A stretch of DNA of 64,000 bases from Rhodanobacteraceae bacterium (GCA_043754435.1 JAYUUS010000146.1:14400-78399), one strand, 5' to 3'; shown: positions 9,701 to 40,737, numbered from the stretch's first letter. Notes: generated by a model not told the origin, from the letters alone. A program made the numbers and translations.

Positions 9701-10734
9701 AGTCAGATGCAGATCACAGCCTTCAGCACGTTGCGGAGTCGTTAACTCAAATGACCAAGCTGAGTGAGCAGCTGTTAACGTATTCGGGCAAAACTCCTCT
9801 GAACTCAAAGTCTTTTGAATTCAACGAATTATTACGTAAAATTCAGTCAATAATGACGGTTTCGGTCAGTAAGAAAGCGCATTTCACACTCCATTTAACG
9901 CCCGAGCACCTAGTTTTGCATGCTGAAGAATCCCAGCTTCAGCAGGTTGCGCTGAATCTTGTGTTGAATGCCTCAGAAGCGCTGGAAGGTCGTAGCGGTG
10001 ATATCGAAATCAGCACCACAAAAGTATCGCGCGCATCACTGAGCCCAGGCATGCAGCTCCAAATCGAACCCGATATCGTGCATTTATTAAAGTTAAGCGT
10101 GCGCGACACCGGTGTCGGCATACCGGAGCACGTATTAGCCCGACTGTTTGAGCCTTTTTTTTCCACCAAAGGCCAAGGCCGAGGTCTGGGAATGTCGGTG
10201 GTTGCCGGGATTGTGCGAGCACACCGGGGCGCTATTGAAGTGTTGAGTAGCCCGCAGTCGGGGACAACTGTATCGGTTTATCTTGCGCTTGAATCAGCCA
10301 CTCGGGTAGCAGCGATGCTCTCGCCCGAGCAGTCCGCGCTTGCACAGACAGCTCCTAAGTTGCCATTGAATTCTGGCTTGATTTTAGTTGTTGATGACGA
10401 ACCGACCTTACGCAACTTGATCTGTAGAACTCTTAACACCCAAGGCTTTGAAACCATGAGCGCCGCAAATGGGGACGAGGCTCTCGTTTTGATGGCAGCA
10501 CGGCCTGAAATAGTATTAGTTTTGCTGGATTTGACGATGCCTCAGCGCGATGGAATAGAGGTCTATGCTGAAATACTGGCCTTTTATCCGAAGCTGGCGG
10601 TGATGCTCATGAGTGGCTATAACGAGCAGTCGATCGCCTCGCGTTTAGGCCCAGATGCGCCTGTGCCCGCGTTTTTACATAAACCATTTCGTACTACCGA
10701 GTTACTATCAATGGTTCGGAAAACATTAGCGTAG
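6712..10734 (+). CDS. Hybrid sensor histidine kinase with multiple PAS/PAC domains and a C-terminal receiver
   Basis: 1340 aa with no obvious TM segment. It has repeated PAS-like blocks, an H-box LAAGLAHDLNNLL, an ATPase region (NLVLNASEAL ... DTGVGIP ... GLGMSVV) and a receiver (ILVVDDEPTLRNL ... LLDLTMP ... KPF). The start may be the internal Met at 6766. Confidence 0.85.
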   Translation: MLTKKRPYLILDSGLGFYMEEFAIRRRLLELEAKVSGLEADAARYRALLRARNDLIVELDERGLISAVSPALLERSGYSASECLGRSTFAFTTPECAQRLRAQSPTLFDWAARRHPFEILMLCKNGAELWLEGNIYAYSTDAYSTEGSISGMFCLYRDITESKVFEDENRRMGEGAINALVLSGVEAFEFDFVEGLVWQSPGYGELLGLSENDARYFGDYGWLGKVCTPDQGLAAGRVEWARKMAADAPPLIVRVPQTDAEIRYIEFHDHYDFNADESLRRMLVTARDVTVAHRDKLALQAASQSAIPHSDVNTQHQLEQALHRLELALQIGEVGVAEWSRTKGWFGVSDRYREALGLPASVHPEKFEQFVKRIHNDDRDSVLQIAQSSFDSGVAKLQRYRYRRPDGRLAHLESGARYIKNSQGELESVISIVRDQTELRAVEQSLRSSLERLSVAMQIGSVHFFEHNIKNDVYQISDGFRQLFGLSQEQPLSTAILLSCIDPKDHARLANHRSGLHGKAIGPVRFRVRSGAGVRWIESMTAFYFDDAGVVERSAGAMREITDQVLLEEEIRTQANLFGALVEYSPDGVVRIDAQARFVSANPAVATLIGFPIEEIIGRTPEDLPISPGRALEFRQRIERFFVTGVGDEFELQFKKLPNAPWLLVRYVPELDANGKPKHLLAFLRDVSQLKSAEQEALASARQLGQILETAEEGILVADAHNVIIFNNPKLEQIFGYAPNELRGKHESLLQLNDAEKQWQQRSLERAAGLSESYSHHFRRKDGSLVLCWVNAKPLQDELGKFSGTLAMLTDVSDIERSERELRKGIEWLEFSMESAQIAGMDIDVESGFSRTTVLFREWFGIPEEGTGSPLLNWTAQVYHEDRTRIQTHVQAILERGSSARLDFRLVDSAGELHWLYAVIVTVCNVVGAVARVVFTVLDITPRRKLEAEREELQNHIARAQREESLGNLAAGLAHDLNNLLTTAFGHIDLARQLIHQSDADHSLQHVAESLTQMTKLSEQLLTYSGKTPLNSKSFEFNELLRKIQSIMTVSVSKKAHFTLHLTPEHLVLHAEESQLQQVALNLVLNASEALEGRSGDIEISTTKVSRASLSPGMQLQIEPDIVHLLKLSVRDTGVGIPEHVLARLFEPFFSTKGQGRGLGMSVVAGIVRAHRGAIEVLSSPQSGTTVSVYLALESATRVAAMLSPEQSALAQTAPKLPLNSGLILVVDDEPTLRNLICRTLNTQGFETMSAANGDEALVLMAARPEIVLVLLDLTMPQRDGIEVYAEILAFYPKLAVMLMSGYNEQSIASRLGPDAPVPAFLHKPFRTTELLSMVRKTLA

Positions 10735-12104: not shown

Positions 12105-13634
12105 ATGGGTACCGTTGGTTCGATTGGTTCAGTAAATTTTTTAGGTCAAACTGTAGGCACCTTAGCGGTCGCAGTATCACTTGCATTGCTAAGCATAGGG
12201 TCATCCTCGGGCGTTGAAGCTGCGCAATATCAGCCCGTGCAAACCCGCACGACGGCAAGCTCACAGCAGCGCTACGTCAGCCGTACCACCCGAAGCGTTG
12301 CCATTCCGGTGCGCAATCAGCGCATTTATTCGGCGCCTCGCGGTGCCACTTTATTGCGCAGCCGTTATTGGGATCCACGCACTCGTTGGATGGTCGATTC
12401 GCGTACGCATTCAAGCTATTCCGTGCTCAGCAACGGCGAAGTTTGGTTCTTAGAGCCCTCCAGCGGCTGGGCTTACACAGTGGATCGTTACGGCCGTGTT
12501 TACGGTGCTGATCCTCGCCGTAACTCAATTTACGCGTTCAGCAGCTTAAATTCTTGGCGCGGCGATTTGTTTTACTTCTTTGACTTTTTCTCGCCTTATG
12601 ATGGCTATTACACGGTGCGCGACTACGACTGGTTTTACTCCAGCTATTACGGTCGACGTACGGCGCTGTTTGATTACGGCTATGCCTATAACTCGATGTG
12701 GGATGATTTCGACGATTTCTGGGGATCAAACCGATTCTATCGCTCGATCAATTTCCGCTACTACGAGCCGCAATACATTCGCTACGGTTCGGGCTGGAAT
12801 AGTGACTATTACCGTTCTGGATTGCCCGCAGTCTATATTGCACCGTGTTATTCCTACACAGTGGTTAACAACATAGTGATCGTCAATAACAACTATTACA
12901 CCAACAATAATATTGTAAACAACGGTGGCGGGGGCTTGCCCACTGCTCAACAAGCAGCTGTGCAACTATCGCAACAAGTTGCTGCGCCCGCCGTGTTCGC
13001 AGGCAATGAAATCAGCACGCAGCAAATTGCGGATGCAGGTATCACGGCACCCGTAGAAATGGTCAAGGAAGTCCCCGTTCAAGAAATGTTGCCAGTCGCC
13101 GCAAACGAACCGGTATTTGAGGTGCCCGGCTTGCCTCAGCCAACGCCAGGGGAAGCAATTACGCCAGTGGAGGCCCAACCCGTAGCACAGCAACCTGTTG
13201 ATAGCTCAGTTGAAAAAACCCCCGGCTTTTCCGAGCCGGTATCGGGGAGTCTCGATCCGGTGCAACCAATAGAGCCGATCGCCTCTGAAAACGAAGCGCA
13301 AAAAGAAGTGCAGCCGCTATATGCAGAGCCTGTAAATCAGGAAATACAGCCTACATATCAAGAGCCATATCAAGATCAAAAGGAGCCTAGCTACGAGCAA
13401 CCTGCGTATCAGGAGCAGGCACGCGAAGAGCAGCCTGCTTACGAAGCGCCGCAGGAGCAGCAGCGTGACGAGCAACCTGCTTATGAAGCGCCGCAGGAGC
13501 AAAGCTATGAGCAGCCTGCTTATGAAGCGCCGCAAGAGCAGCGCAACACGCAGCCGAGCAACGAGGAATCGCAGGACGAAAGTGATGCGCAACCAAGTTA
13601 TGAACTGCAACCCCAAGAGCCGCCACGCAATTAA
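12105..13634 (+). CDS. Secreted low-complexity repeat protein of unknown function
   Basis: 509 aa. The signal-peptide-like N-terminus is LAVAVSLALLSIGSSSGVEA|AQ. It has a Tyr/Trp/Phe/Arg/Asp-rich core, the stretch YTVVNNIVIVNNNYYTNNNIVNNGGGG, and then a Pro/Glu/Gln-rich tail with EQPAYEAPQEQ repeats. A terminator follows. Confidence 0.6.
   Translation: MGTVGSIGSVNFLGQTVGTLAVAVSLALLSIGSSSGVEAAQYQPVQTRTTASSQQRYVSRTTRSVAIPVRNQRIYSAPRGATLLRSRYWDPRTRWMVDSRTHSSYSVLSNGEVWFLEPSSGWAYTVDRYGRVYGADPRRNSIYAFSSLNSWRGDLFYFFDFFSPYDGYYTVRDYDWFYSSYYGRRTALFDYGYAYNSMWDDFDDFWGSNRFYRSINFRYYEPQYIRYGSGWNSDYYRSGLPAVYIAPCYSYTVVNNIVIVNNNYYTNNNIVNNGGGGLPTAQQAAVQLSQQVAAPAVFAGNEISTQQIADAGITAPVEMVKEVPVQEMLPVAANEPVFEVPGLPQPTPGEAITPVEAQPVAQQPVDSSVEKTPGFSEPVSGSLDPVQPIEPIASENEAQKEVQPLYAEPVNQEIQPTYQEPYQDQKEPSYEQPAYQEQAREEQPAYEAPQEQQRDEQPAYEAPQEQSYEQPAYEAPQEQRNTQPSNEESQDESDAQPSYELQPQEPPRN
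13428..13541 (+). repeat. Three near-identical 33-nt in-frame tandem repeat units (GAGCAGCCTGCTTAYGAAGCGCCGCARGAGCAR) with 9- and 6-nt spacers
   Basis: Units are read directly at 13428-13460, 13470-13502 and 13509-13541. Each encodes EQPAYEAPQEQ. More degenerate copies lie upstream. Confidence 0.8.
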
Positions 13635-13685
13635 TTGGCAAGGCCTTTAAGATATTTAGGCTGTTTTAGCTCAGTAAAATCATGC

Positions 13686-13721
13686 AAACCCTGCGAGTAA
13701 TCGCGGGGTTTGCTGTTTTTT
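13686..13721 (+). terminator. Rho-independent terminator
   Basis: 10-bp stem AAACCCTGCG / CGCGGGGTTT (one G-U pair), a 6-nt loop, then GCTG followed by a T-run. Confidence 0.7.
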
Positions 13722-13773
13722 GGCGTGCGCCCTAGGTACACTGCGCACCCCTGAACCCAGAAGTGATGAGTCT

Positions 13774-14157
13774 ATGAGCGACGTAAACGCCAACCTGCGC
13801 TATCTCAAGTCACATGAGTGGGCCAGATTAGAGTCGGACGGCAGTGTCACAATAGGCATTTCTGAACATGCGCAAGAAGCGTTGGGTGAGTTAGTTTTTG
13901 TTGAACTGCCGGCGGTTGGCAAAGTTTTAGCAGCGGGTACGGCGGCAGCTGTGGTAGAAAGTGTCAAAGCGGCGAGTGACGTCTACTCACCTATTGCTGG
14001 CACCGTAATTGCCGTGAACGCATCCTTGAGCGATGCACCGGAAACAATCAACTCTGATTGCTATGGCAAGGGGTGGATGTTCAAACTGCAACCCGAAGGC
14101 AGTGATCCATTAGCTAGATTAATGGATGCAGCAACGTACGCCGCTGCAATCGCTTAA
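13774..14157 (+). CDS. gcvH: Glycine cleavage system protein H
   Basis: Carries [10 protein letters not shown] and the lipoyl-lysine motif [18 protein letters not shown] place the start at the ATG at 13774 ([11 protein letters not shown]). The TTG-extended ORF start at 13720 overlaps the upstream terminator. Confidence 0.9.
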
Positions 14158-14367
14158 GACGCATCGCTGAAGAAGTTTAGATTTAAACATCGCTACCAAA
14201 ACTTTATTTTATTGATCTGCTAATTCGCTAGCCGCACGACGCTAAGCCAAGTAAGATTAGAGTCGATGCTCGCGTTTTGGAATACCTGAATTTTTTTACC
14301 CCTATTTTTTCCAGACGCATTTTTTTCAAACATATTCTAAATTGAACCGTACAAGGATTTCCGCTCA

Positions 14368-15411
14368 ATGCGTTCTTTGATTGAACTTCTCATAGCGTTG
14401 GCTATCTCTGCCCTCTTTTTTGTGTGCTTAGGTTTTGCGTTGCCCAGTAAAGGCATAATCGAGCGGCATATCGAAATTGAGCGTCCCGCGATCCACGTCT
14501 ATGACATGGTCAATTCGACGCGACGTTTTTCCGCTTGGCAACCCTGGACTTACAAAGACCCGGATGCTGCAATTGAGTTTTCCGAGCTACAGGATGGCGA
14601 AGGTTCAAAAGCCTACTGGACGTCAGCCGTTTTAGGAAATGGTTCACAAGAAATCATGGCGGGCGGTGAGCCGGAAAAGCTTGTCAGGCTAAAAATGGAT
14701 CTGGGCAAGCGTAAAGGCATAAGCACTATTAAAATCGAACCTATGGCTGTAGGTGTCAAAGTGTCCATGGCTTTCGAGACTGAATTCAATGGCCTATTGG
14801 AGCGATATAAGGGGCTCTACTTAGATTCAGAGCAAGGCGATAAACTCAATTTAGGTCTAGCGAGTTTGAAGGCGACGTTAGAAAACTCCCCCTATGCTGC
14901 AGATTATGCGGAAGCAGCCGTTGAAGAAAAGGTCGTGCTTCCTACGCCCGCATTGCAGTTGACCAGCACCGCAAAGGGTTATTCCACGCAGCCGTTGAAT
15001 GTTCCACGTGATCGTCAAGTTGCGTTTGAGACCATTGAAAAGGTCATTACCGCAAATAAGTTGACTGCTCAAACGCCACAGTTCGTGGAAATCTCGCGCG
15101 ACCCAGTGAATTATATCGTCGTGTTTGAAACCACTATCCCGGTCGACAAAATCGATGGCATCAAGCTTTCTGATGACGTCAAAGCAATTACCACTGCCGG
15201 CGGAAAGTATTTGGTGGCAAAGCACTTAGGCATTCGCGATAACTGGCATTTACCTGGGCAAACCAAAGACAAAATTTTAGCTTATGCAGCCGTACATGAT
15301 GTGCGTTTGTCACCTTTGGAAAGTGGCCGTCATATCTATGCTGAGTATTTAAGCCCAGCTGGCACGCCCGAAGCGCAGTTTGAAACCAACGTTTACGTGC
15401 CCACCGAATAG
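14368..15411 (+). CDS. Membrane-anchored protein with an SRPBCC-like N-terminal half and a GyrI-like (effector-binding) C-terminal half
   Basis: 347 aa. It has an N-terminal TM helix. The segment IERHIEIERPAIHVYDMVNSTRRFSAWQPW resembles polyketide-cyclase/SRPBCC family starts. The C-terminal half (GGKYLVAKHLG...YAEYL) resembles GyrI-like domains. Assignment is by resemblance only. Confidence 0.45.
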   Translation: MRSLIELLIALAISALFFVCLGFALPSKGIIERHIEIERPAIHVYDMVNSTRRFSAWQPWTYKDPDAAIEFSELQDGEGSKAYWTSAVLGNGSQEIMAGGEPEKLVRLKMDLGKRKGISTIKIEPMAVGVKVSMAFETEFNGLLERYKGLYLDSEQGDKLNLGLASLKATLENSPYAADYAEAAVEEKVVLPTPALQLTSTAKGYSTQPLNVPRDRQVAFETIEKVITANKLTAQTPQFVEISRDPVNYIVVFETTIPVDKIDGIKLSDDVKAITTAGGKYLVAKHLGIRDNWHLPGQTKDKILAYAAVHDVRLSPLESGRHIYAEYLSPAGTPEAQFETNVYVPTE

Positions 15412-15436
15412 TTTTTACGGTCAGCACCAATCTGAG

Positions 15437-15466
15437 AGCGGCGTCTTCGGACGCCGCTTTTTTTTC
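15437..15466 (+). terminator. Rho-independent terminator
   Basis: 9-bp GC-rich stem AGCGGCGTC / GACGCCGCT with a TTCG tetraloop, followed by a T-run. Confidence 0.8.
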
Positions 15467-15511
15467 ATTAGTCGTATCGTGGTAAACTATGTGCATGAAT
15501 GAGTCTAGCCT

Positions 15512-16705
15512 ATGAATTTTTCTGATCGTATTGACGCCGAGCTTGCAGAAATTGACGGTGCTGGTTTGTTCAAGCGCGAGCGCATCATCGTTTCAAGCCA
15601 AGCAACGGAAATTACTCTTAGCGATGGCACGCAGGTATTAAACTTTTGCGCGAATAATTACCTCGGCCTCAGTGACAACTCAGAAGTCATTCAGGCTGCC
15701 AAGGATGCGTTGGATAGTCATGGCTTCGGCATGGCCTCGGTGCGGTTTATTTGTGGCACCCAGGATTTGCATAAGCAGCTAGAAACAGCGATTGCGGATT
15801 ATTTTGGTACTGAAGATACGATTTTGTATGCGGCGTGCTTTGATGCTAATGGCGGCCTTTTTGAGCCGCTGCTAAATGAGCAAGACGCGGTTATTTCTGA
15901 TGCTCTGAACCACGCCTCAATTATTGATGGCGTGCGTTTGTGCAAAGCACAGCGATTTCGGTACGCGAATTGTGATATGGCGGATCTGGAAGCGCAGTTG
16001 ATTGCGGCACAAGGCTGTCGAACCCGGTTAATCACCACCGACGGTTCATTCAGCATGGATGGCTCCATTGCACCGTTAGATCAAATTACCCGCCTTGCCA
16101 AAAAATATGATGTGCTGGTGCATATAGATGAATGTCATGCCACCGGGTTTTTGGGCGCTAGCGGACGCGGAAGCGCTGAATTTCATGGTGTGCACGATCA
16201 AATCGATATTTTCACAGGCACCCTTGGAAAAGCCTTGGGGGGCGCACTCGGGGGTTTCACCACCGGCCGTAAGAATGTGATTGAATTGCTACGACAACGT
16301 TCCCGACCGTATCTTTTTTCGAATTCTTTGCCGCCTGCTGTGGTGGCAGCGAGCTTAAAAGTGTTTGAGCTGCTAAGTAATGATGAATTCGGCGGACAAG
16401 CACGTCAGCGCATTACCGAAAACACCGCCTATTTTCGCACGGCGATGACCGCTGCAGGCTTCGATCTTAAACCGGGCGTGCATCCAATCACGCCGGTGAT
16501 GCTGTATGACGCAAAACTCGCCCAACAATTCGCTGGCGAACTTCTCAAAGAAGGGATTTATGTCATCGGCTTTTTCTTCCCCGTTGTTGCCAAAGGCCAA
16601 GCGCGCATCCGCGTGCAAATCTCGGCGGCGCACTCGATTTCGCAACTTGAGCGTGCGGTCAGCGCGTTCGTGCGGGTTGGAAAACGGCTTAAAGTTTTAC
16701 CTTAA
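15512..16705 (+). CDS. kbl: Glycine C-acetyltransferase (2-amino-3-ketobutyrate CoA ligase)
   Basis: 397 aa. Carries [31 protein letters not shown] and the PLP-lysine motif GTLGKALGG. Confidence 0.9.
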
Positions 16706-16721
16706 CGTCATTAAAAATATC

Positions 16722-17195
16722 ATGTCAGAGCACTCAGCTTCTATCCGCTGGACGAATACCGGTGGCGACTTCTTGCAAAAAGAATACAGCCGTGATCATT
16801 CGATAGAATTTCCAAACGGTCGCAAAATCGAAGGATCTGCAGCGGCGGCTTACGGTGGTAATCCGGCGAATTTGGATCCCGAAGCCGCATTCACCGCATC
16901 GCTATCGTCTTGTCACATGTTGACCTTTCTAGCGATCTGCTCGGTTAGGGGCTTTATCGTTGAAAGCTATGATGATGATGCGGTCGGCTATCTAGATAAA
17001 AATCTTGAGGGCAAAGTTTGTATGACGCGCGTTGTACTGCGCCCACTCGTGCAGTTTTTTGCAGGCTCCGAAGCGGGCGTGCCGGATAGTGAACAACTGG
17101 CGATGCTGCATGAACGCGCTCATCGCGCCTGCTTCATCTCCACTTCGGTAAAAACTAGCGTAGAAATTGAACCACGCGAACAGGGTGAAAACTGA
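16722..17195 (+). CDS. OsmC/Ohr-family peroxiredoxin-like protein
   Basis: 157 aa from the ATG at 16722 (MSEHSASIRWT...). The segment LSSCHMLTFLAI and overall length fit the OsmC family. The longer track ORF (16506) merely overlaps the kbl 3' end. The stop overlaps the next gene's start (ATGA). Confidence 0.75.
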   Translation: MSEHSASIRWTNTGGDFLQKEYSRDHSIEFPNGRKIEGSAAAAYGGNPANLDPEAAFTASLSSCHMLTFLAICSVRGFIVESYDDDAVGYLDKNLEGKVCMTRVVLRPLVQFFAGSEAGVPDSEQLAMLHERAHRACFISTSVKTSVEIEPREQGEN

Positions 17196-18415
17196 TGTCA
17201 AACAATCCTATGGTTACCAATTCCACTACCCCTTCACCCGAGCAGGTGCTCGCGCATGTGCAACAGGCTGTTGATGATGCTGTACATTCTGTTGAAAAGA
17301 GCGTTTCACAGGCGAAGGAAATGGTTGGCGACTCCTTTAACAGCGCCTGTGATCGAGCTTCAATGGCAAAAACACAGATTGGTGCCAGCATGGCCCAACT
17401 CACTTCACAAATTTCCGCAAACTCCAAGCAAGGCCTGAGCAATACGGTTGACAGAACGCGCTCCGTTCGCCGCAGTTTGACTGTTGCATTCAAGCGTTGG
17501 TTTGATACGGCCGTTGATGAAGTGCCGGTTTCGATCACGGAAGACAAGATTGATTTAATCCGAACGCTGCCGTTTATTGGCGTGCATTTGATGTGTTTGG
17601 GAGTGTTTTTTGTCGGATTTAGCTGGGTTTCTGTCGGTGTTGCCGCACTGTTTTATGTGTTGCGTATGTTCGCGATCACCGGGTTTTATCACCGCTACTT
17701 TTCCCACAAGAGCTTTAAAACTTCCCGCGCTTTTCAGCTAGTGATGGGCCTATGGGGCGCATCTAGCGCGCAGCGTGGCCCGCTTTGGTGGGCCGCTAAT
17801 CACCGGCACCACCACAAAACCTCTGACCAGCCGCAAGATTTCCATTCGCCTGTGCAGCACGGGTTCTGGTGGAGTCACATGGGCTGGATCATGGGAAAAA
17901 GCGCTTTTCGTACCAATGAGGCGCAGATTCCCGACTTAGTTAAGTTCCCAGAGCTCAAACTACTGGATCGCTTTGATCTGATCATGCCTTTTGTGCTCGG
18001 TGGCTTCATGCTGGGCTTGGGGATTTTCCTTGAAAAATACGTACCAAGTCTTGGTACCAATGGCCCGCAGATGTTGATTTGGGGCTTTTTTGTGTCCACG
18101 GTGGCGCTGTTTCATGGCACGGTGACGATCAATTCGCTTTCCCATGTATGGGGTACTCGGCGCTACAAGACCAACGATGATTCCCGAAACAACTGGTTTT
18201 TAGCAATCATTACCTTAGGCGAGGGCTGGCACAATAATCACCACCATTATCCAGGCTCAGTGCGCCAGGGATTTTTTTGGTGGGAGTACGACTTAACCTT
18301 TTACGGCCTCAAGGTGCTGAGTTGGATGGGGCTGATTTGGGATTTGAAGAGCGTCCCGGAGAACTTCAAAAATGCGCATATTGCTGCGCGTGAAAAATCG
18401 AAGCTGGCCAAATAG
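17195..18415 (+). CDS. Membrane fatty-acid (acyl-CoA/acyl-lipid Delta9-type) desaturase with a hydrophilic N-terminal extension of about 120 aa
   Basis: Three histidine boxes are present: HRYFSH, HRHHH and GEGWHNNHHHYP. TM helices lie between the boxes. Confidence 0.85.
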   Translation: MSNNPMVTNSTTPSPEQVLAHVQQAVDDAVHSVEKSVSQAKEMVGDSFNSACDRASMAKTQIGASMAQLTSQISANSKQGLSNTVDRTRSVRRSLTVAFKRWFDTAVDEVPVSITEDKIDLIRTLPFIGVHLMCLGVFFVGFSWVSVGVAALFYVLRMFAITGFYHRYFSHKSFKTSRAFQLVMGLWGASSAQRGPLWWAANHRHHHKTSDQPQDFHSPVQHGFWWSHMGWIMGKSAFRTNEAQIPDLVKFPELKLLDRFDLIMPFVLGGFMLGLGIFLEKYVPSLGTNGPQMLIWGFFVSTVALFHGTVTINSLSHVWGTRRYKTNDDSRNNWFLAIITLGEGWHNNHHHYPGSVRQGFFWWEYDLTFYGLKVLSWMGLIWDLKSVPENFKNAHIAAREKSKLAK

Positions 18416-18482
18416 TTGATCTTAAAGCCATCTGGTTTGGGCTTAAATCCTACATTAATATGCACTGGTATATTTAAACCCA

Positions 18483-19772
18483 ATGGCAAAAATAGCGGTT
18501 ATTGGCAGCGGCATTTCTGGGCTGGGCTGCGCCTATCTATTGCAGCGCCGCCACGAGGTTTCGGCATTTGAAGCCAACGACTACGCAGGTGGCCATACAC
18601 ATACGCACAGCATCGCTGTGGGCACCCAGAGCTATCAGGTCGACACTGGCTTTATTGTGTTTAATCCGAATCACTACCCCAATTTCGTCCGCCTTTTGAG
18701 CGAGTTGGGTGTGGCGGATCAGCCGACACTGATGGGTTTTGGCGTGAAAAACGAACGCAGCGGTTTGGAATATAACGCCACCACAGTCAATCAGCTTTTT
18801 GCGCAGCGCAGTAACTTACTCAGCCCGCGTTTTTGGCAGCTTATCCGTGATTTAAAGCGATTTTATCGAACGCCACACCCATTATTGACAATGCCGGATC
18901 CTGGGCCAACGGTTGGCGAATATCTAAAGTCTGAAGGGTACAGCGAGATCTTCGCACAAGATCATTTGATCCCAATCGCCTCTGCACTGTGGTCATCCCC
19001 TGGCATTGGCATTGAAGCGTTTCCGGCGAAATATCTGGCGCAGTTTATGGCGAATCACCACATGCTCAATACCGACAGCACCCGCCCGCCCTGGCGCGTG
19101 GTGAAAGGTGGCTCGCAAAGCTACACCCGCGCGTTGTTGGCAAAATTGAAACAACCCGTTCGGTTAAACAGCCCGGTGCAGCAGGTGCAGCGTGATGCTA
19201 GTGGCGTAACGATTAAGGTCAATCAGGAAACTGAGCGTTTTGATCATGTGGTGTTCGCCTGCCACAGCGATCAAGCGCTCAAAATGCTGAGCGAACCCTC
19301 CAATGCGGAACGCGCAGTGCTGGGTGCGCTGCGTTTTCAGGCGAATGATGTGCTGCTGCATACCGACACCTCAATCATGCCCAAACGGCGCAAGGCCTGG
19401 GCCGCGTGGAATGCGCATATCGCTGCCGATGAAAATTCCAATCAGAAGTGCACGGTGACGTATTGGATGAATTTGTTGCAAAGCATTAATGCGCCGGTGG
19501 AGTTTTTGGTGAGCTTGAACTGTAATGACCGCATTGACCCCGCAAAAATCCTAAAGCGGCTGCGCTATGAACACCCGATTTACACGCATGAAACCGTGCA
19601 GGCACAAAAACGCCGCGCGGAAATTAACGGCGTCAACGCAAGTGCCCCGAATATACCGAACAGCTTAGGGCGCAGCTTTTATTGCGGTGCGTACTGGGGT
19701 TTTGGCTTTCACGAGGACGGCTTGCGCTCAGCGGTTGAAGTGGCTGAGATGCTAGATTCCGGCTGGGCTTAG
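18483..19772 (+). CDS. FAD/NAD(P)-binding amine-oxidase-like oxidoreductase
   Basis: 429 aa with the dinucleotide-binding N-terminus KIAVIGSGISGLGCAYLL. It has a conserved partnership with DUF1365 and Cfa-like genes. Confidence 0.8.
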   Translation: MAKIAVIGSGISGLGCAYLLQRRHEVSAFEANDYAGGHTHTHSIAVGTQSYQVDTGFIVFNPNHYPNFVRLLSELGVADQPTLMGFGVKNERSGLEYNATTVNQLFAQRSNLLSPRFWQLIRDLKRFYRTPHPLLTMPDPGPTVGEYLKSEGYSEIFAQDHLIPIASALWSSPGIGIEAFPAKYLAQFMANHHMLNTDSTRPPWRVVKGGSQSYTRALLAKLKQPVRLNSPVQQVQRDASGVTIKVNQETERFDHVVFACHSDQALKMLSEPSNAERAVLGALRFQANDVLLHTDTSIMPKRRKAWAAWNAHIAADENSNQKCTVTYWMNLLQSINAPVEFLVSLNCNDRIDPAKILKRLRYEHPIYTHETVQAQKRRAEINGVNASAPNIPNSLGRSFYCGAYWGFGFHEDGLRSAVEVAEMLDSGWA

Positions 19773-19775
19773 CCG

Positions 19776-20606
19776 GTGTTAACAGGCGCTCAAGTAGCGC
19801 GGGTAAGCGCCAGTAAGGAAGATTCTGGCACGTTAAATTCGTGCCTGTATGTCGGCACTATCCGCCACCGCCGCTATTTCCCGGTGCCGCACGGATTTAA
19901 CTACGCGATCTATATGAGCTATTTGGATCTAGACGAGCTGGATCAAATCTATCGTGGCCGGTGGTTTTGGTCGAGCAATCGGCGCAACTTGGTGGAATAT
20001 CGGCGTAGCGATTTTTTAGGCCCAGCGAATGTGCCACTGAAAACCGCTGTGTTGGATCGCGTTGAAGCCGCAACCGGCGAACGCCCAAACGGGCCCGTGC
20101 GCTTATTGGCGCATTTACGCTATTTCGGCTTAAGTTTTAATCCGGTTTGCTTCTACTATTGTTTTGAAGCTGATGGCGAAACGCTGCACAGTATTGTCGC
20201 GGAAATAACCAACACACCCTGGCGTGAACGCTTTGCCTATGTTTTGCCGGTGCGTACTGCGCGCCAGCACGGCAGCGTTTGGCGTTGGGAGTTCGACAAG
20301 AAGTTTCATGTGTCGCCGTTTTTACCGATGGGCCTAGGCTATGACTGGCGCTTTCAAAAACCCGATGCAAACCTTCGGGTGCATATGGACGTGCTTGCGC
20401 CGACTGACGATTCAGCCATTAAAACGTTAAGACAATTTGATACCACCCTAGTTTTAGGGCGCAAAGAATTGACCGGAGTGAATCTAGCCAGCGCGCTGTT
20501 GCGTTTCCCATTCATCACATTGGGCGTGCTCATAAAAATTTATTGGCACGCACTTTTGATACGTTGGAAAAAAAACCCGTTTTTCGATCACCCGAAATTG
20601 CCATAA
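19776..20606 (+). CDS. DUF1365 family protein
   Basis: The N-terminal block LYVGTIRHRRYFPVPHGFNYAIYMSYLDLDEL is typical of DUF1365. The start codon is uncertain (GTG at 19776). Confidence 0.7.
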   Translation: MLTGAQVARVSASKEDSGTLNSCLYVGTIRHRRYFPVPHGFNYAIYMSYLDLDELDQIYRGRWFWSSNRRNLVEYRRSDFLGPANVPLKTAVLDRVEAATGERPNGPVRLLAHLRYFGLSFNPVCFYYCFEADGETLHSIVAEITNTPWRERFAYVLPVRTARQHGSVWRWEFDKKFHVSPFLPMGLGYDWRFQKPDANLRVHMDVLAPTDDSAIKTLRQFDTTLVLGRKELTGVNLASALLRFPFITLGVLIKIYWHALLIRWKKNPFFDHPKLP

Positions 20607-20659
20607 AGCCTGTTACATATTTGCATCTGTCGATGTGTCGGTAATCTGTCAGTACTTTT

Positions 20660-20688
20660 TGTAAAACGGATGCGTTTTCTGTAAAACG
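20660..20688 (+). promoter_or_regulatory. Possible operator: direct repeat TGTAAAACG x2, exactly 20 bp apart, flanking an AAAACG/CGTTTT palindrome
   Basis: Read directly in the only sizeable intergenic gap (20607-20764) of the lipid cluster. No known consensus is assigned. Confidence 0.2.
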
Positions 20689-20764
20689 AACCGAGTGATT
20701 TAAATATGTTTGAATATGCAAGCCACCCTCAACTGTACGCTCCATCCATTTTTAAACGCCACCC

Positions 20765-22075
20765 ATGAATGAATCTAGTTTAGCCAAACCCTTCGATTTA
20801 CCCGGTAGCGAATTTGCCGCTGCGCGCTGCGAACTCAAGGTGGCCTCACAAAGTGCGTTGAAGCGCGCGCTATGCAAGAAACTGGTGCAAATTAAAGAAT
20901 GTGCGCTCAGTATCAGCGAAGGTCCCGAGACAATGAGTTTTGGCGATGGTGCGGGCACTGACGTATTGCGCGCGCATATCCGAATCTTAAATCCGCAAAT
21001 GTGGACCTCGGTTGCCACTAATGGCAGCGTAGGCGTCGCTGAAAGTTTTATGGACGGGCATTGGGTGGTCGACGATGTTGTCGCACTCGTGCGAATTTTC
21101 GTGCGCAATCGCGATATTTTAGATCGTATGGAGGGCGGTTTGGCGAAGTTTGGTCAATGGCTGCTGCGTGCTTGGCACCAAAAGCGCCGCAATACTCATA
21201 CCGGCAGCCAACGCAATATTTCTGAGCACTATGATTTATCGAACGCGCTGTTCAAAACGTTTTTAGATCCAACGATGATGTATTCGTGTGCGGTTTACGA
21301 GCGTGTTGACGACACTCTAGAAGTGGCAGCGGTGCGCAAGCTTGATCGAATCTGCCAAAAGCTAGCGCTTAAGCCCGGCGACCACCTGTTGGAAATTGGC
21401 ACCGGCTGGGGTGGCTTTGCGGTGTATGCAGCGCAAAATTATGGCTGCAAAATCACCACGACAACAATCAGCGAAGAACAATTTCAGCTTGCCACCGCGC
21501 GCGTCGCTGAGGCCGGTTTAACCGGGCAGATCAGTGTAATCAAACAGGACTATCGGGCGTTGACGGGTAGCTTTGATAAAGTCGTTTCGATTGAAATGAT
21601 TGAAGCGATCGGGCATCAATACCTTAATACCTATTTTGGCAAGATTGCTAGCTTGCTTAAACCCGATGGCTTGGCGCTGGTGCAAGCGATTACCATTGAA
21701 GACAGCCGCTACGCGCAAGCCTTGAAAGACGTTGATTTTATCAAGCGCTATATCTTTCCCGGCAGCTTTATTCCCTCTATCACCGCCATGCTAGGTGCTT
21801 GCACTGAGGCTAGCGACATGAAGCTAGTGCATTTAGAAGACATAGGCCCGAGCTATGCGTTAACGTTGTGCGCATGGCGGGAACGTTTCAACGCGCACCT
21901 TGCAAAAGTGCGCGAACTTGGCTTCGACGCGCGTTTCATTCGCATGTGGAACTATTATTTGGCGTATTGCGAAGGTGGCTTTATTGAGCGCTCGATTGGT
22001 GACGTGCAGTTGCTTTTTGCGCGGCCGCGCAATACCAGAACGCAGTACTTGCCAGACTTAAATTGTCAGATATAA
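20765..22075 (+). CDS. Cyclopropane-fatty-acyl-phospholipid synthase family SAM-dependent methyltransferase
   Basis: 436 aa. Carries the SAM motif LLEIGTGWGGFAVYAA, plus HYDLSNALF and YLAYCEGGF, which are typical of the Cfa/mycolic acid methyltransferase family. Confidence 0.85.
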   Translation: MNESSLAKPFDLPGSEFAAARCELKVASQSALKRALCKKLVQIKECALSISEGPETMSFGDGAGTDVLRAHIRILNPQMWTSVATNGSVGVAESFMDGHWVVDDVVALVRIFVRNRDILDRMEGGLAKFGQWLLRAWHQKRRNTHTGSQRNISEHYDLSNALFKTFLDPTMMYSCAVYERVDDTLEVAAVRKLDRICQKLALKPGDHLLEIGTGWGGFAVYAAQNYGCKITTTTISEEQFQLATARVAEAGLTGQISVIKQDYRALTGSFDKVVSIEMIEAIGHQYLNTYFGKIASLLKPDGLALVQAITIEDSRYAQALKDVDFIKRYIFPGSFIPSITAMLGACTEASDMKLVHLEDIGPSYALTLCAWRERFNAHLAKVRELGFDARFIRMWNYYLAYCEGGFIERSIGDVQLLFARPRNTRTQYLPDLNCQI

Positions 22076-22118
22076 CGCCAATTGCCGTAGCGCTGAACCA
22101 CAAGGACGTGAGGGTTAT

Positions 22119-22640
22119 TTGAAAACTTTGTTGAATGTTGTTTTTTTTCAGGCGGTTTGGCTAGCATCGGTCGGCGGCGCTGGACGCGGCTATTGGTGGT
22201 TAGGTTTGCCGGTGCTTGCGGTGTTCCTGATTTATCATTTCTCAATTTCGACCTGCCGAAAAGCCGATGCTCAGCTGCTTGTCATCAGTGTGATTCTGGG
22301 TTTTATTGCCGATAGCGTATTGTTGCAGCTGGGGCTTTTACGCTTTGAGCAGCCGGTGCCGTGGGTGAATTTCGCGCCCATTTGGATCTTGACGCTCTGG
22401 GCGAGTTTCGCCTTGACGCTTAATCATTCGATGGCATTTTTCCAAACGCGTCCTGTTTGGGCCGTGATTTTCGGGTTTTTTGGCGGGCCACTGGCGTATT
22501 ACGTCGCTGCAAACGTTTGGAAAGCCGCTGTTTTCACTGCGCCACCGCTGCATGTTTACGGCGCGTTAGCGTTAGTGTGGGCGATCATGACGCCGCTGTT
22601 ACTAAACATCGGGTTAAATTTGCAGCGCAAAGCCGCTTAG
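22119..22640 (+). CDS. DUF2878-like small polytopic membrane protein
   Basis: 173 aa with 4-5 TM helices. Its conserved position between Cfa-like and DUF1295 genes supports the call. The family assignment is from memory of this cluster type. Confidence 0.55.
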   Translation: MKTLLNVVFFQAVWLASVGGAGRGYWWLGLPVLAVFLIYHFSISTCRKADAQLLVISVILGFIADSVLLQLGLLRFEQPVPWVNFAPIWILTLWASFALTLNHSMAFFQTRPVWAVIFGFFGGPLAYYVAANVWKAAVFTAPPLHVYGALALVWAIMTPLLLNIGLNLQRKAA

Positions 22641-22690
22641 GCTTTACCCGCGTGAGTGCATAACTTGCGGAGTCTTTTTGAAGGATCGCT

Positions 22691-23494
22691 GTGGACTTAA
22701 CCGTATTTGTCAAAGATGCCGCCGTCGTCGCTGGCTTTACCAGTATTGCAATGATTGGCAGCTGGGCCTGGCAGCGCCAGCGCTTGAATGCCGGCATCGT
22801 GGATATTACTTGGGCATGCTGTTTAGCATTTGCTGCGCTTTATTACGGTGCCGTGGGGGAAGGCGCAATCGTGCCTAGAATGATGGTCGCTTTATTGGGC
22901 GCAATTTGGGGTTTTCGCCTAGCAAGCCATTTACTTGCGCGCGTTTTGAGCGAACCGGAAGATGGCAGGTACGCGTTTTTGCGTGCACATTGGAAAGGCT
23001 CGCAGTGGAAGTTTTTCCTTTTTTTTCAGGGGCAGGTTTTGTTGGTGTTACTGTTTTCTGTGCCGTTTCACGTTGCAGCGCAAAATCCCACCGCTGGGTT
23101 TACACCTTGGATATTGGCGGGAATTGCCGTATGGATGATCAGCATCGGCGGCGAGTCTTTAAGTGATGCGCAGCTTGCCAGTTTCCGCAAAAATTCTGCT
23201 AATCGCGGTAAGACTTGCCGCAGCGGCCTTTGGCGCTATTCGCGCCACCCGAATTATTTTTTTGAATGGCTACATTGGTTTAGCTACTGCTGTTTTGCCA
23301 TTGGCGCAGCGGGTGCGGCGTGGGCATTGATTGGGCCCATCACGATGTTAGTGACGCTCTGCTGGGTGACGGGCATTCCGTTCGTCGAAGCGCAATCGCT
23401 GCGTTCGCGGGGTGAGGATTATCGCAATTATCAGCGCACTACCAGCCCGCTGATTCCATGGTTTCCGAAAAAGCTTAATTCCCTAAAAAACTAG
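22691..23494 (+). CDS. DUF1295 / steroid-5-alpha-reductase-like membrane protein
   Basis: 267 aa polytopic protein. The motif GLWRYSRHPNYFFEWLHW is characteristic. Confidence 0.75.
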   Translation: MDLTVFVKDAAVVAGFTSIAMIGSWAWQRQRLNAGIVDITWACCLAFAALYYGAVGEGAIVPRMMVALLGAIWGFRLASHLLARVLSEPEDGRYAFLRAHWKGSQWKFFLFFQGQVLLVLLFSVPFHVAAQNPTAGFTPWILAGIAVWMISIGGESLSDAQLASFRKNSANRGKTCRSGLWRYSRHPNYFFEWLHWFSYCCFAIGAAGAAWALIGPITMLVTLCWVTGIPFVEAQSLRSRGEDYRNYQRTTSPLIPWFPKKLNSLKN

Positions 23495-24216
23495 TTTGAT
23501 GCAGCAATGATGGCTGAAATTGCGGACTCAACCGCCGCAATTGACGCCTCATTAGACTCAGCCTTCAGTTGTGTTAATGCTGCAGATAATGCAACCGCGC
23601 CGGTAAAGCCCGCAGCGCCCGCCAACTTGTGCCGCAGCTCGCTTAAAGCTACAGCATCGTTTTGTTCAAATGCTTGGCGCAGCATGTCGCCTTTACTTAT
23701 CAACTCCGTGACCAGCATCGCCCGCAGTTTTAGCATTAGCTTTTCATCGCCACCGGTGGTTTTTAGCGCGATAGCGCGATCAAATATGGCCTCGCTCGAA
23801 GCGTTTTGCTTATTCGCATCCAGTGCGGTGCTGATCGTGCCCGTCGCCTGCCGTACTGCAGCAATGATCGCGCTGGCCGACCAAGGTTTTGCAAAAACTT
23901 CCATAAACCCTGCTTGCAACAGGCTTGCCCTAAGCGCCGCACTCAGCTCGCCCGTCAGCGCAAACGCGGGGCTTGCAGTTGAAAGCGCCGTAGAATCTGC
24001 GCGCATTCGCTGGAGCAGCACGTCACCATTAAAATCGGGCAGTTGAATGTCAAGCAGCAGCAGCGCATAGTAATTTTTATGCGCGAGCGCTAAGCCTTCA
24101 CGCGCGCTCAAAGCAGTATCAACCTCAAAGCCAGCCGCGCTTAGTAGCTCGCTGAGCAGGGTTAAGTTCATCGCGACATCATCGACGGCGAGTATTCGAA
24201 TTGGGCTGTTTGACAT
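23491..24216 (-). CDS. Response-regulator receiver domain fused to a C-terminal Hpt (histidine phosphotransfer) domain
   Basis: The receiver reads RILAVDDVAMNL ... LLLLDIQLPDFNG. The C-terminal LSELRHKLAGAAGFTGA matches the Hpt H-x-x-K-G motif. I place the start at the ATG at 24216 (MSNSPIRIL). The stop codon overlaps the convergent DUF1295 stop (CTAG). Confidence 0.7.
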   Translation of the reverse strand: MSNSPIRILAVDDVAMNLTLLSELLSAAGFEVDTALSAREGLALAHKNYYALLLLDIQLPDFNGDVLLQRMRADSTALSTASPAFALTGELSAALRASLLQAGFMEVFAKPWSASAIIAAVRQATGTISTALDANKQNASSEAIFDRAIALKTTGGDEKLMLKLRAMLVTELISKGDMLRQAFEQNDAVALSELRHKLAGAAGFTGAVALSAALTQLKAESNEASIAAVESAISAIIAASN

Positions 24217-24321
24217 TGAACGATGAACTCCGCTGATACTGCAGTTTCGACTAAATCCACCCACTTAGGCCATACTCCGCGCTTAAATTTTTGGCACCCC
24301 TATGTGCCTTAAGGATTTGCC

Positions 24322-25623
24322 TTGCCAGCGTTTGAAATAGACATTGATGATTTGAGCCACGACGCGCGGGGTGTGGGGCGCTTAAACGATAAAGTTGCGT
24401 TTATCAGCGGTGCATTGCCGGGTGAACGGGTGCGCGGTGAGCATCTGCACCATGGAAAAAGCTTCGATCATGGCGTGGCTGCTGAAATTTTGCGTGCCAG
24501 CCCAGAACGTGTAATACCCAAGTGCGAGCATTTCGGTGGCTGCGCGGGCTGTAGCCTGCAGCATTTTTCACAGGCCGGGCAACTGGCGTTCAAGCAAAAC
24601 ATGCTGCTGCAGGATCTCAAAAAAATCGGCCGTGTGGAGCCAGAACGACTGCTGGCACCGCTTTTTGACGCGGAATTCGGCTATCGGCGCAAGGCGCGTT
24701 TAAGCGTTAAAGATGTGGCTAAGAAAGGCAAAGTGCTGGTCGGGTTTCGCGAGCTTGACGGGCGCTTCGTCGCAGACTTGCGCCGCTGCGAGACTTTGCA
24801 CCCAAAAATTGGCGATCGCATTGCCGATTTAGCGCGTTTGATCGAAAGCTTAAGCGTGCGCAAGCAAATCGCCCAAATCGAAGTGGCGATTGCGGAGGAA
24901 TCTGCCGCATTGGTGTTTCGCAACTTAAGCCCGCTCAGCCCGAGTGATGTGGAAAAGCTGCTCGCATTTGGCGCGCTGCACGACTTTCAAATGTGGCTAC
25001 AGCCCAAGGGCAACGACAGCATCTACCCACTGAATGACGCGAGCGCAGGATTGCATTACACCTTGCCCGAGTTTGACGTGCGCGTGAACTATCGCCCGCT
25101 GGATTTTACCCAAGTCAACTTTGGCCTGAATCGCAAAATGGTGCAACAAGCGCTCGGCTTGTTGGCACCCAGCGCTGGTGAGCGCGTGCTTGATTTATTT
25201 TGCGGTTTAGGAAATTTTACGCTGCCGCTGGCGCGCTCGGGTGCCGTGGTAACAGGCGTTGAAGGCGACGCTGGTTTGGTGGCGCGGGCACGTGAAAATG
25301 CTGAGGCGCACGGTCTGTTGGCGAATGTTGACTATGCTGTGGCGGATTTATTTTTGGAGCAAAGCCAAGCCAATTGGGCGCGCGCGAACTATGACAAAAT
25401 CTTGCTCGACCCACCGCGCGCGGGTGCTGAAGGCGTTCTAAAATATTTGCCCGGCCCCAGCGTGCAGCGCGTGGTTTATGTATCGTGCAACCCGGCGACC
25501 TTGGCACGCGACACCGAAGTTCTCGTCCACACACACGGCTTTAAGCTCAAAGCCGCTGGGATTATGGATATGTTTACGCACACCAGCCACGTCGAGTCGA
25601 TGGCACTGTTTGAGCGCGCATAA
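24322..25623 (+). CDS. rlmD: 23S rRNA (uracil-C5)-methyltransferase RlmD (RumA)
   Basis: 433 aa. It has a TRAM-like N-terminus, an Fe-S cysteine cluster CEHFGGCAGCSLQH, the SAM motif LDLFCGLGNFTLPLA, then DPPRAG and the catalytic region YVSCNP. Confidence 0.85.
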   Translation: MPAFEIDIDDLSHDARGVGRLNDKVAFISGALPGERVRGEHLHHGKSFDHGVAAEILRASPERVIPKCEHFGGCAGCSLQHFSQAGQLAFKQNMLLQDLKKIGRVEPERLLAPLFDAEFGYRRKARLSVKDVAKKGKVLVGFRELDGRFVADLRRCETLHPKIGDRIADLARLIESLSVRKQIAQIEVAIAEESAALVFRNLSPLSPSDVEKLLAFGALHDFQMWLQPKGNDSIYPLNDASAGLHYTLPEFDVRVNYRPLDFTQVNFGLNRKMVQQALGLLAPSAGERVLDLFCGLGNFTLPLARSGAVVTGVEGDAGLVARARENAEAHGLLANVDYAVADLFLEQSQANWARANYDKILLDPPRAGAEGVLKYLPGPSVQRVVYVSCNPATLARDTEVLVHTHGFKLKAAGIMDMFTHTSHVESMALFERA

Positions 25624-40398: not shown

Positions 40399-40722
40399 GT
40401 GTCCCATATAAGCCCATTCTATCCGATAGACGAAGTTCGCGCGGCAGCGGCAGCAGGTCGGCTCATCGCTGAGTCTGGGGCTGATACGCACTCACGCGAA
40501 TTGGGTTACAGCAGGGAAGCTGTGCTCAAGGTTCTTAAAAATTTGGACATCAAACAGTTTCACAAGACATACCTTTATCCGCAGCGCAATTTTCCGCTTG
40601 ATTCGTACAAGCTGAAAGCCCTGTCCGACACCAAGCAATTCGATGACCTCTACATCAAATTTGCATTGCGGGGCGAAGGTAGGTCACGAATTCTCTTGGT
40701 GTCCTTTCATTTGAATAGGTAG
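40399..40722 (+). CDS. mqsR: Type II toxin, MqsR family
   Basis: 107 aa with a GTG start. The N-terminal P-x-Y-x-I..V....AG pattern, the ELG block, F.K and the C-terminal ILLVSFHLNR align by eye with E. coli MqsR (...VLIVSFKEK). Confidence 0.75.
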   Translation: MSHISPFYPIDEVRAAAAAGRLIAESGADTHSRELGYSREAVLKVLKNLDIKQFHKTYLYPQRNFPLDSYKLKALSDTKQFDDLYIKFALRGEGRSRILLVSFHLNR

Positions 40723-40737
40723 TTGGAAGAAGCCACC

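Follow-up and report, generated by a model that had tools for sequence, protein, structure and literature searches.

Furan fatty acids (FuFAs) are made in bacteria by a pathway that acts on phospholipid-bound acyl chains (Lemke et al. 2020, PMC7380195). In Rhodobacter (Cereibacter) sphaeroides, the Cfa-like S-adenosylmethionine (SAM) methylase UfaM (RSP2144) converts cis-vaccenate to 11Me-12t-18:1, the flavoprotein UfaD (RSP1091) yields 11Me-10t,12t-18:2, and the DUF1365 protein UfaO (RSP1090) uses this diene and O2 to form 9M5-FuFA (PMC7380195). The ufaD-ufaO-ufaM genes of Rhodopseudomonas palustris, RPA2571-2570-2569, are contiguous and are both necessary and sufficient, and FufM (RPA0924), a distant UfaM paralog with 26% identity, adds a second methyl group (PMC7380195). 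A Halomonas UfaM that is contiguous with ufaD and ufaO makes 11-methyloctadec-12-enoate in Escherichia coli (PMC12089945). Here, we examine a seven-gene cluster in a 64,000-nt stretch of DNA from a Rhodanobacteraceae bacterium (the window; G+C content (GC) 52.5%; coordinates are window positions), which encodes, in order, an OsmC protein, a fatty acid desaturase, an amine-oxidase-like flavoprotein, a DUF1365 protein, a Cfa-like methyltransferase, and the membrane proteins DUF2878 and DUF1295. We consider it probable that this region is an operon that turns phospholipid-esterified acyl chains into methylated FuFAs, in a form belonging to the Xanthomonadales.

The seven genes and their counterparts

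All seven open reading frames (ORFs) lie on the + strand where the original prediction had placed them, and every Pfam match exceeds its gathering score (Table 1). The six junctions from OsmC to DUF1295 measure -1, 67, 3, 158, 43, and 50 nt. ORF calls and Pfam therefore agree with the predicted series of co-directional genes, their domain names, and their short junctions, and the single internal gap of 158 nt is real. One detail required correction: the OsmC and desaturase genes had been said to share an ATGA overlap, and the junction instead reads TGATG, an overlap of 1 nt at 17195. The arrangement is not due to chance, because dozens of genomes share this gene order, with protein identities of 45-75%.

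For comparison, we used the 80 closest loci (cited by L number) from a scan with one genome per species, nearly all of which are labeled Xanthomonadales/Lysobacterales. Typical relatives have a GC of 66-71%, well above that of the window; longest-ORF calling gave spurious ORFs in such loci, for which we relied on precomputed gene calls and on tblastn searches with the proteins of the window. The nearest relative, L008, is a metagenome-assembled genome labeled Rhodanobacteraceae with 88-95% protein identity over eight genes, and other relatives reach at most ~75%. By sequence, the source organism belongs to the Xanthomonadales/Lysobacterales as a divergent member with low GC.

The flavoprotein, DUF1365, and Cfa-like genes had been recognized as a module of the singlet-oxygen RpoE-ChrR regulon, and this matches the published Ufa genes (PMC7380195, PMC12089945). 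Their correspondence to individual Rhodobacter loci, initially left open, is UfaD to RSP1091, UfaO to RSP1090, and UfaM to RSP2144, the last being encoded elsewhere in that genome. RSP1089-1087, which specify a GPH symporter, a lipoprotein, and a short-chain dehydrogenase/reductase (SDR) that are all dispensable, do not correspond to the Cfa, DUF2878, and DUF1295 genes of the window. PSPTO_1118 of Pseudomonas syringae is 39% identical to RSP1091. When compared with the Pseudoalteromonas trio that stands directly behind rpoE-chrR and phrB, the window proteins show identities of 42% (UfaD), 32% (UfaO), and 45% (methyltransferase).

The flavoprotein carries the N-terminal dinucleotide motif GSGISG at residues 8-13, which together with its Pfam matches indicates an amine-oxidase/phytoene-desaturase-like fold; its nearest solved structure is LkcE (E=2.4e-38). 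The best explanation for this gene is a UfaD-type acyl-chain desaturase that depends on flavin adenine dinucleotide. The protein encoded only 3 nt downstream spans DUF1365 over its full length, and the two genes are paired in all related loci. Our search found no solved structure for the DUF1365 protein. By analogy with characterized homologs, it is best explained as a UfaO-type protein that would carry out O2-dependent formation of the furan ring. In Chlamydomonas, singlet oxygen induces DUF1365, DUF1295, and two CFA genes together, which supports a conserved functional association and gives no mechanism.

The Cfa-like enzyme (Pfam CMAS) finds its best structure match in E. coli Cfa (6bqc, E=4e-58) and its best NCBIfam matches in NF053839/NF008686 (~290 bits), but it scores below every NCBIfam cyclopropane-synthase equivalog cutoff (290.8 vs 600, 285.8 vs 400, and 234.1 vs 650). 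The E. coli Cfa bicarbonate ligands C139, E239, I268, and Y317 are kept, whereas H266 is replaced by Q307. Gln occupies this position in 79 of 79 orthologs as well as in the enzymes encoded next to UfaO in Azospirillum, Salinivibrio, and Pseudoalteromonas, where it falls in the sequence QAITI, and His is found in E. coli Cfa, Lactobacillus Cfa, and a second methyltransferase of many relatives (MT2, see below). This Gln-for-His signature is shown for the UfaO-linked class rather than for validated UfaM itself. The enzyme has neither an equivalog-level score nor the full bicarbonate set of a cyclopropane synthase, and its gene is contiguous with those of the UfaD and UfaO types, as in R. palustris and Halomonas. 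The best explanation is a methyltransferase of the UfaM type and not an ordinary cyclopropane synthase.

The desaturase had been interpreted as a local extension at the upstream end of the module. It directly precedes UfaD in 70 of the 80 related loci; nine others are contigs that end at this point, and L086 alone truly lacks it. The desaturase thus belongs to the module throughout the order and was not added locally. Its His boxes, HRYFSH166, HRHHH203, and HNNHH346, follow the SCD-type pattern HxxxxH/HxxHH/HxxHH in a membrane domain with four transmembrane (TM) segments, and the SCD1 structure 4ymk matches at E=8e-24. A membrane di-iron fatty acid desaturase of the SCD/DesB type is the best explanation. 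The protein reaches 87.7 bits against the NCBIfam DesA equivalog cutoff of 400, and the designation "Delta9" is a source annotation only, as regiochemistry cannot be read from sequence.

A hydrophilic N-terminal extension of about 120 aa had also been proposed for this protein. The region does have that length, but the extension proper is ~80 aa, given that short forms already have ~40 aa before TM1. The first His box lies at residue 166 here, compared with 80-99 in the short forms (56 of the 120 best homologs) and 140-203 in the long forms (~45 of 120). The extension consists of a variable number of amphipathic A-K/R-E-x-V-type repeats, and because its character is conserved among long-form homologs, ATG 17195 is confirmed as the start. 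AlphaFold2 (AF2) models a single long helix over residues 15-100 at low predicted confidence (pLDDT). Against Pfam, the extension gave only sub-threshold matches of the apolipoprotein/ApoLp-III, late-embryogenesis-abundant (LEA), and perilipin types; a true apolipoprotein domain was rejected, as all matches fall far under the gathering score and the likeness is compositional and structural only. Long-form desaturases are found almost only where OsmC adjoins, a pairing that probably reflects shared ancestry within one clade.

Two membrane proteins complete the cluster. The AF2 model of DUF2878 is a six-helix bundle (pLDDT 97) with no significant fold match in the Protein Data Bank (PDB), the best being the Insig homolog MvINS (TM-score 0.41, E~1). 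As DUF2878 also occurs in the Salinivibrio and Pseudoalteromonas clusters, it is a conserved partner of the module in both Xanthomonadales and ChrR-linked clusters. DUF1295 belongs to the steroid-5-alpha-reductase/ICMT superfamily; the window protein has, besides the DUF1295 domain, a likeness to the C-terminal domain of steroid reductases and a weak match to delta14-sterol reductase. A fungal DUF1295-like protein, UsgR, is an ene-reductase (PMC8597850), and the window protein is a candidate ene-reductase or methyltransferase. The expectation that DUF1295 often accompanies the core trio holds within the Xanthomonadales but fails in the ChrR-linked clusters of Azospirillum, Salinivibrio, and Pseudoalteromonas, which have SDR, NTF2, and DUF3833 genes instead. 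In L090 (10522-11681), no DUF1295 gene was called after DUF2878, whereas the near-identical L091 has one; a frameshift, a deletion, or an assembly problem is possible.

The OsmC protein is closest among solved proteins to Vibrio cholerae VCA0330 (PDB 2d7v, E=8e-35) and falls in the VCA0330-like subgroup. Its score for the SACOL1771 subfamily, 29 bits against a cutoff of 166, places it outside that subfamily. Both OsmC Cys motifs, SSCHML and HRACFIS, are kept with 2d7v, in agreement with a two-Cys OsmC fold, and we regard the protein as a putative thiol-dependent organic/lipid hydroperoxide reductase.

Promoter motifs and the transcription unit

The RpoE-ChrR promoter consensus is TGATCC-N16-CGTA. 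A nearly identical motif, TGCATCC-N16(17)-CGTA, is present on the coding strand upstream of the desaturase in 43 of 72 loci, where it sits 55-190 nt from the gene in loci among L009-L089 (e.g., L089 at ~9930, L078, and L049). The motif has a density of 1.7/kb upstream of the desaturase versus 0.036/kb elsewhere in the same loci, an enrichment of ~48-fold. Most Xanthomonadales appear to drive the cluster from this RpoE-ChrR-like promoter of the extracytoplasmic function (ECF) type. Separately, we observed that L089, a 3.8-Mb JGI metagenome contig, has a sigma/anti-sigma pair just before the desaturase (8339-9723), in which the sigma factor is of the ECF family (Sigma70_r2/r4_2) and the anti-sigma factor is of the RskA_C type and not of the ChrR cupin type.

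The motif search returned nothing in the window, L008, L090/91, L003, L004, or L007. Looser patterns in the window gave eight matches to GATC-N16-20-CGTA versus 4.3 expected, none at a promoter position; two to ATCC-N15-18-CGTA, both on the minus strand; and none to [TG]CATCC-N15-17-CGT. A ChrR-type promoter at the window cluster was rejected, as no + strand motif lies near it. The absence of an ECF sigma/anti-sigma pair next to the cluster, already remarked upon in the original prediction, extends to the whole 64 kb: tblastn detected no homolog of RpoE, ChrR, RskA, phrB, SDR, DUF3833, or MT2, and Pfam returned no match of the RpoE, ChrR, or RskA type on the ORFs examined. Neither mark of membership in the RpoE-ChrR regulon, the promoter motif or an adjacent rpoE-chrR pair, was found within the window; a sigma factor may be encoded elsewhere in the genome. 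The window lineage has lost the ECF promoter and appears to transcribe the cluster with kbl, the gene immediately upstream. Because this lineage is without the ECF promoter, the sequence suggests that cluster expression is uncoupled from a stress sigma factor and is probably tied to kbl.

The original prediction had the cluster begin at OsmC and span 16722-23494. Its genes stand, but its start probably does not: because a terminator precedes kbl and only 16 nt separate the end of kbl from the start of OsmC, the transcription unit probably opens at kbl, one gene earlier. The terminator, whose hairpin and T-run are kept in L008 (~90% identical), is the likely 5' boundary of the unit. A candidate extended -10 element, TGGTAAACT, lies ~20 nt upstream of the kbl ATG and falls in the block CATCGTGGTAAACT, which is conserved between the window and L008 while the spacer around it has diverged; it may be the sigma70-type promoter of the unit. 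A scan for sigma70 promoters and terminators gave convincing terminators only at 13684 and 15434, and a promoter-like match at 16696-16723 was dropped, as it overlaps the OsmC start codon.

kbl adjoins the cluster in L002-L008 and L090/91. In Silanimonas and Chiayiivirga, an opposite-strand gene intervenes, and tdh-like genes lie near kbl. We judged it unlikely that kbl serves as an alpha-oxoamine synthase of the lipid pathway, given the strong Kbl equivalog match and, in these two genera, the tdh-like genes nearby and the intervening gene. kbl is probably co-transcribed with the cluster as a conserved neighbor whose membership in the pathway is unproven. Upstream of kbl lie gcvH (13720-14157) and a gene for a 347-aa protein (14368-15411) with a weak SRPBCC/Polyketide_cyc2 (lipid-binding fold) match, a pair also seen upstream of kbl in L002, L008, and L090/91. 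GcvH is a lipoyl protein, and Ohr/OsmC peroxidases are known to use lipoyl donors, which may be coincidence.

An intergenic gap of ~160-180 nt between the UfaO-type and methyltransferase genes is restricted to the window, L008, and L090/91; elsewhere these genes abut or overlap. In the window, the gap has no stable RNA fold (minimum free energy z=+1.24) and no Rfam family was found in positions 13000-25000, and a structured RNA was rejected. The gap may hold an internal promoter or regulatory site. At the other end of the cluster, a gene for a stand-alone receiver + Hpt protein (23491-24264, minus strand) converges on DUF1295 with a 4-nt overlap that leaves no room for a terminator between them.

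Table 1. Positions of the cluster genes and associated elements in the window
Feature	Position	Strand	Description
Intrinsic terminator	15434-15461	+	12-bp stem, 7 GC pairs, T8 run; ends the upstream SRPBCC-like gene (14368-15411)
Candidate extended -10 element, TGGTAAACT	15480-15488	+	~20 nt upstream of kbl ATG
kbl (glycine C-acetyltransferase)	15512-16705	+	TIGR01822, 676.7 bits vs cutoff 493
OsmC	16722-17195	+	Pfam OsmC PF02566, 39.9 bits
FA_desaturase	17195-18415	+	Pfam, 74.1 bits
UfaD-type flavoprotein	18483-19772	+	Pfam Amino_oxidase, 88.3 bits; NAD_binding_8, 53.2 bits
UfaO-type DUF1365	19776-20606	+	PF07103, 252.7 bits, profile positions 1-234 of 235
Intergenic gap, UfaO-methyltransferase	20607-20764	+	158 nt
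UfaM-type methyltransferase (CMAS)	20765-22075	+	Pfam CMAS, 283.9 bits
DUF2878 membrane protein	22119-22640	+	Pfam, 138.3 bits
DUF1295 membrane protein	22691-23494	+	Pfam DUF1295, 233.9 bits; Steroid_dh, 38.8 bits

Several other features were recorded elsewhere in the window. At 6712-10734 (+), a hybrid histidine kinase of 1340 aa combines several PAS domains with a receiver domain at its C terminus. A 509-aa ORF at 12105-13634 (+) has no Pfam match at E<=1e-5 and is followed by a strong terminator at 13684-13713. A metallo-beta-lactamase-fold protein at 38816-39541 (-) barely reaches the gathering score of Pfam Anti-Pycsar Apyc1 (51.2 vs 50). Finally, an MqsA-type antitoxin gene (83.6 bits; 40723-41265, +) abuts a preceding 107-aa ORF (40399-40722), and this pair, 40399-41265, is a possible toxin-antitoxin system.

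Proposed pathway and alternatives

In the pathway that we favor, a saturated acyl chain would first acquire a cis double bond through the SCD-type di-iron desaturase. The UfaM-type enzyme would transfer the SAM methyl group onto this bond with an allylic shift to give a methyl-branched trans-monoene, a step shown for the R. sphaeroides, R. palustris, and Halomonas homologs. The UfaD flavoprotein would remove two hydrogens to form a conjugated methyl-diene, and UfaO would insert O2-derived oxygen and close the furan ring, as has been shown for homologs of both. The two-Cys OsmC protein would reduce lipid hydroperoxides on or next to the oxidation-prone chains, with DUF2878 and DUF1295 acting as conserved membrane accessories.

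The common gene order of the relatives is Des-UfaD-UfaO-MT1-DUF2878-DUF1295-MT2 (Xanthomonas, Lysobacter, Thermomonas, Rhodanobacter, and others), in which MT1 is the UfaM-type gene and MT2, a ~340-aa CMAS protein, follows DUF1295 in most Xanthomonadales clusters (e.g., L005:15618-16649 and L088:15673-16716). MT2 is 23-30% identical to MT1 and keeps the canonical His; it is plausibly an analog of FufM and may serve to make dimethyl furan acids. MT2 is absent from L002, L008, and L091 as well as from the window, and because the window lacks a FufM-like second methyltransferase, its predicted product is a monomethyl FuFA.

An alternative that we regard as unlikely limits the functional unit to the desaturase, DUF1295, and the genes between them, five or six in all, and takes OsmC, like kbl, for a neighbor that synteny has kept in place in this lineage and that serves general peroxide defense instead of the pathway. 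OsmC stands beside the desaturase in only ~15 of ~72 loci, and the Silanimonas and Chiayiivirga arrangement separates kbl from the cluster. In L029, moreover, the ECF-type motif lies inside the OsmC 3' end, so that transcription would start past OsmC, and in L011, L016, and L058 a weaker motif variant falls between OsmC and the desaturase. On the other hand, the ECF-type motif is upstream of OsmC at L039:6984 and L050:809, making OsmC the first gene of the unit, and the adjacency persists where the desaturase is only 55-70% identical and the upstream contexts differ. The overlap of the OsmC stop and desaturase start, present in the window, L008, and L090/91, argues for translational coupling in the window lineage. 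Because the position of the motif relative to OsmC varies in this manner, the membership of OsmC in the unit appears to be lineage-dependent. It is plausible that, as originally proposed, the cluster produces an oxidation-sensitive acyl chain and also protects it, but only some of the loci include OsmC.

We give somewhat less credence to a different modified chain, for example a saturated mid-chain methyl-branched acid formed by Delta9 desaturation, Cfa-like methylation, and reduction by DUF1295, with the roles of the flavoprotein and DUF1365 having diverged. Such a reductase role would suit the superfamily of DUF1295 and the ene-reductase activity of its fungal relative, and both DUF1295 and the desaturase are features of the Xanthomonadales version that are absent from the three ChrR-type clusters inspected. 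Xanthomonadales fatty acid profiles routinely report a "summed feature" in which iso-17:1 w9c and 10-methyl-16:0 are indistinguishable, and actinobacteria make 10-methyl acids with a Cfa-like methyltransferase and a reductase (BfaB/BfaA). However, the reductase of the characterized 10-methyl pathway is of a different family, and the methyltransferase of the window carries the active-site signature of UfaO-linked enzymes elsewhere. In addition, UfaD and UfaO are strictly kept and tightly coupled in every locus, and such retention would not be expected of genes whose diene and furan steps had fallen out of use.

The FuFA pathway itself can be elaborated into a single joint reading, which we consider improbable as a whole. 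The Xanthomonadales-type cluster, of which the window would be a stripped-down, de-regulated form, would be a self-sufficient aerobic route from saturated phospholipid chains to FuFA. The desaturase and UfaD would form a redox couple in which the FADH2 (reduced flavin adenine dinucleotide) that UfaD generates on forming the conjugated diene gives the desaturase its two electrons, so that each furan precursor consumed would pay for one new cis-monoene. The amphipathic extension would hold the desaturase on the membrane surface where remodeling takes place, and OsmC would clear the lipid peroxides that arise. The FuFA formed could be iso-branched or a regioisomer, as yet undescribed in bacteria.

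Very improbable is an ordinary cyclopropane synthase in an operon that serves general membrane stress and involves no furan chemistry: the closest PDB and NCBIfam entries and four of the five bicarbonate ligands do point to cyclopropane synthases, but the scores lie far under all equivalog cutoffs, His is replaced by Gln in every ortholog and every UfaO-linked enzyme examined, and both methyltransferases from this gene context that have been studied by experiment are UfaM rather than Cfa.

Several observations weigh against the FuFA operon that we propose. Desaturases of the SCD type need an electron donor, and the cluster contains no obvious candidate. Four of the seven genes are without a demonstrated role, because R. 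sphaeroides and R. palustris make FuFA without a dedicated desaturase, DUF2878, or DUF1295. Most related clusters lack OsmC, and the downstream position of the ECF-like motif puts it outside the unit in L029 and probably in L011, L016, and L058. Two separate transcripts could also result from the 158-nt gap. Our sequence comparisons used plasmid-borne ChrR-linked clusters as proxies in place of the validated RSP2144, RPA2569, RSP1090, and RSP1091, and the literature searched contains no lipid or FuFA report for the source organism or any member of the Xanthomonadales.

Comparison with known systems

FuFAs are potent scavengers of radicals and singlet oxygen and are of nutritional and industrial interest. 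The bacterial pathway has so far been defined in two alphaproteobacteria and one Halomonas enzyme, and we found no description of the Xanthomonadales/Lysobacterales cluster type in the literature searched. If our assignment is correct, a whole order of Gammaproteobacteria, whose members include Xanthomonas, Lysobacter, and Rhodanobacter, has the pathway as a package of its own, with a dedicated desaturase, DUF2878, DUF1295, usually a second methyltransferase, and a ChrR-like ECF promoter. This package offers candidates for the supply of substrate, for the electron donor, and for the roles of DUF1295 and DUF2878. The window lineage, with its coupled OsmC and no ECF promoter, would be a naturally occurring variant with a possibly constitutive pathway, and a cluster with its own desaturase could simplify heterologous FuFA production. 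These results extend a known system and do not overturn the current understanding of it.

Among individual proteins, the desaturase shares three His boxes in SCD-type spacing with acyl-CoA Delta9 desaturases of the SCD1 and Pseudomonas DesB types (mouse/human SCD1 match, E~1e-23). It differs in its ~80-aa N-terminal amphipathic helical extension and in having no adjacent reductase partner.

In R. sphaeroides, UfaD and UfaO adjoin as they do in the window, but ufaM is unlinked and lies beside phrB, and the RSP1091-1087 operon also contains the symporter, lipoprotein, and SDR genes. That operon is driven by RpoE from TGATCC-N16-CGTA, whereas the window has neither the motif nor the sigma/anti-sigma genes. 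ChrR-linked clusters, which include those on Pseudoalteromonas, Salinivibrio, and Azospirillum plasmids/chromids, P. syringae PSPTO_1121-1114, and Halomonas YLGW01, have the UfaD-UfaO-methyltransferase order of the window. In the three annotated ChrR-linked loci, the methyltransferase has the same QAITI signature, and two of the three (Salinivibrio and Pseudoalteromonas) have DUF2878. Their flanks differ and contain NTF2, SDR, and DUF3833 genes, joined by phrB in two of these loci, and we saw neither a desaturase nor OsmC or DUF1295 in them.

R. palustris RPA2571-2569 resembles the window in that the flavoprotein, DUF1365, and Cfa-like methyltransferase genes are contiguous and share the order seen in the window. 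Its pathway is not reported to include a desaturase, OsmC, DUF2878, or DUF1295, and fufM lies elsewhere. R. palustris also makes dimethyl FuFA through FufM, whereas the window is without a second methyltransferase.

Within the Xanthomonadales, most clusters combine a short-form desaturase, MT2, and an ECF-type promoter (43 of 72 loci) and have no OsmC. The window lineage, in contrast, has a long-form desaturase, a coupled OsmC, the 158-nt gap, and probable transcription from upstream of kbl, with no MT2, ECF motif, or ECF/ChrR genes. What the window and these clusters have in common is the gene order from the desaturase to DUF1295, kept at 45-75% identity.

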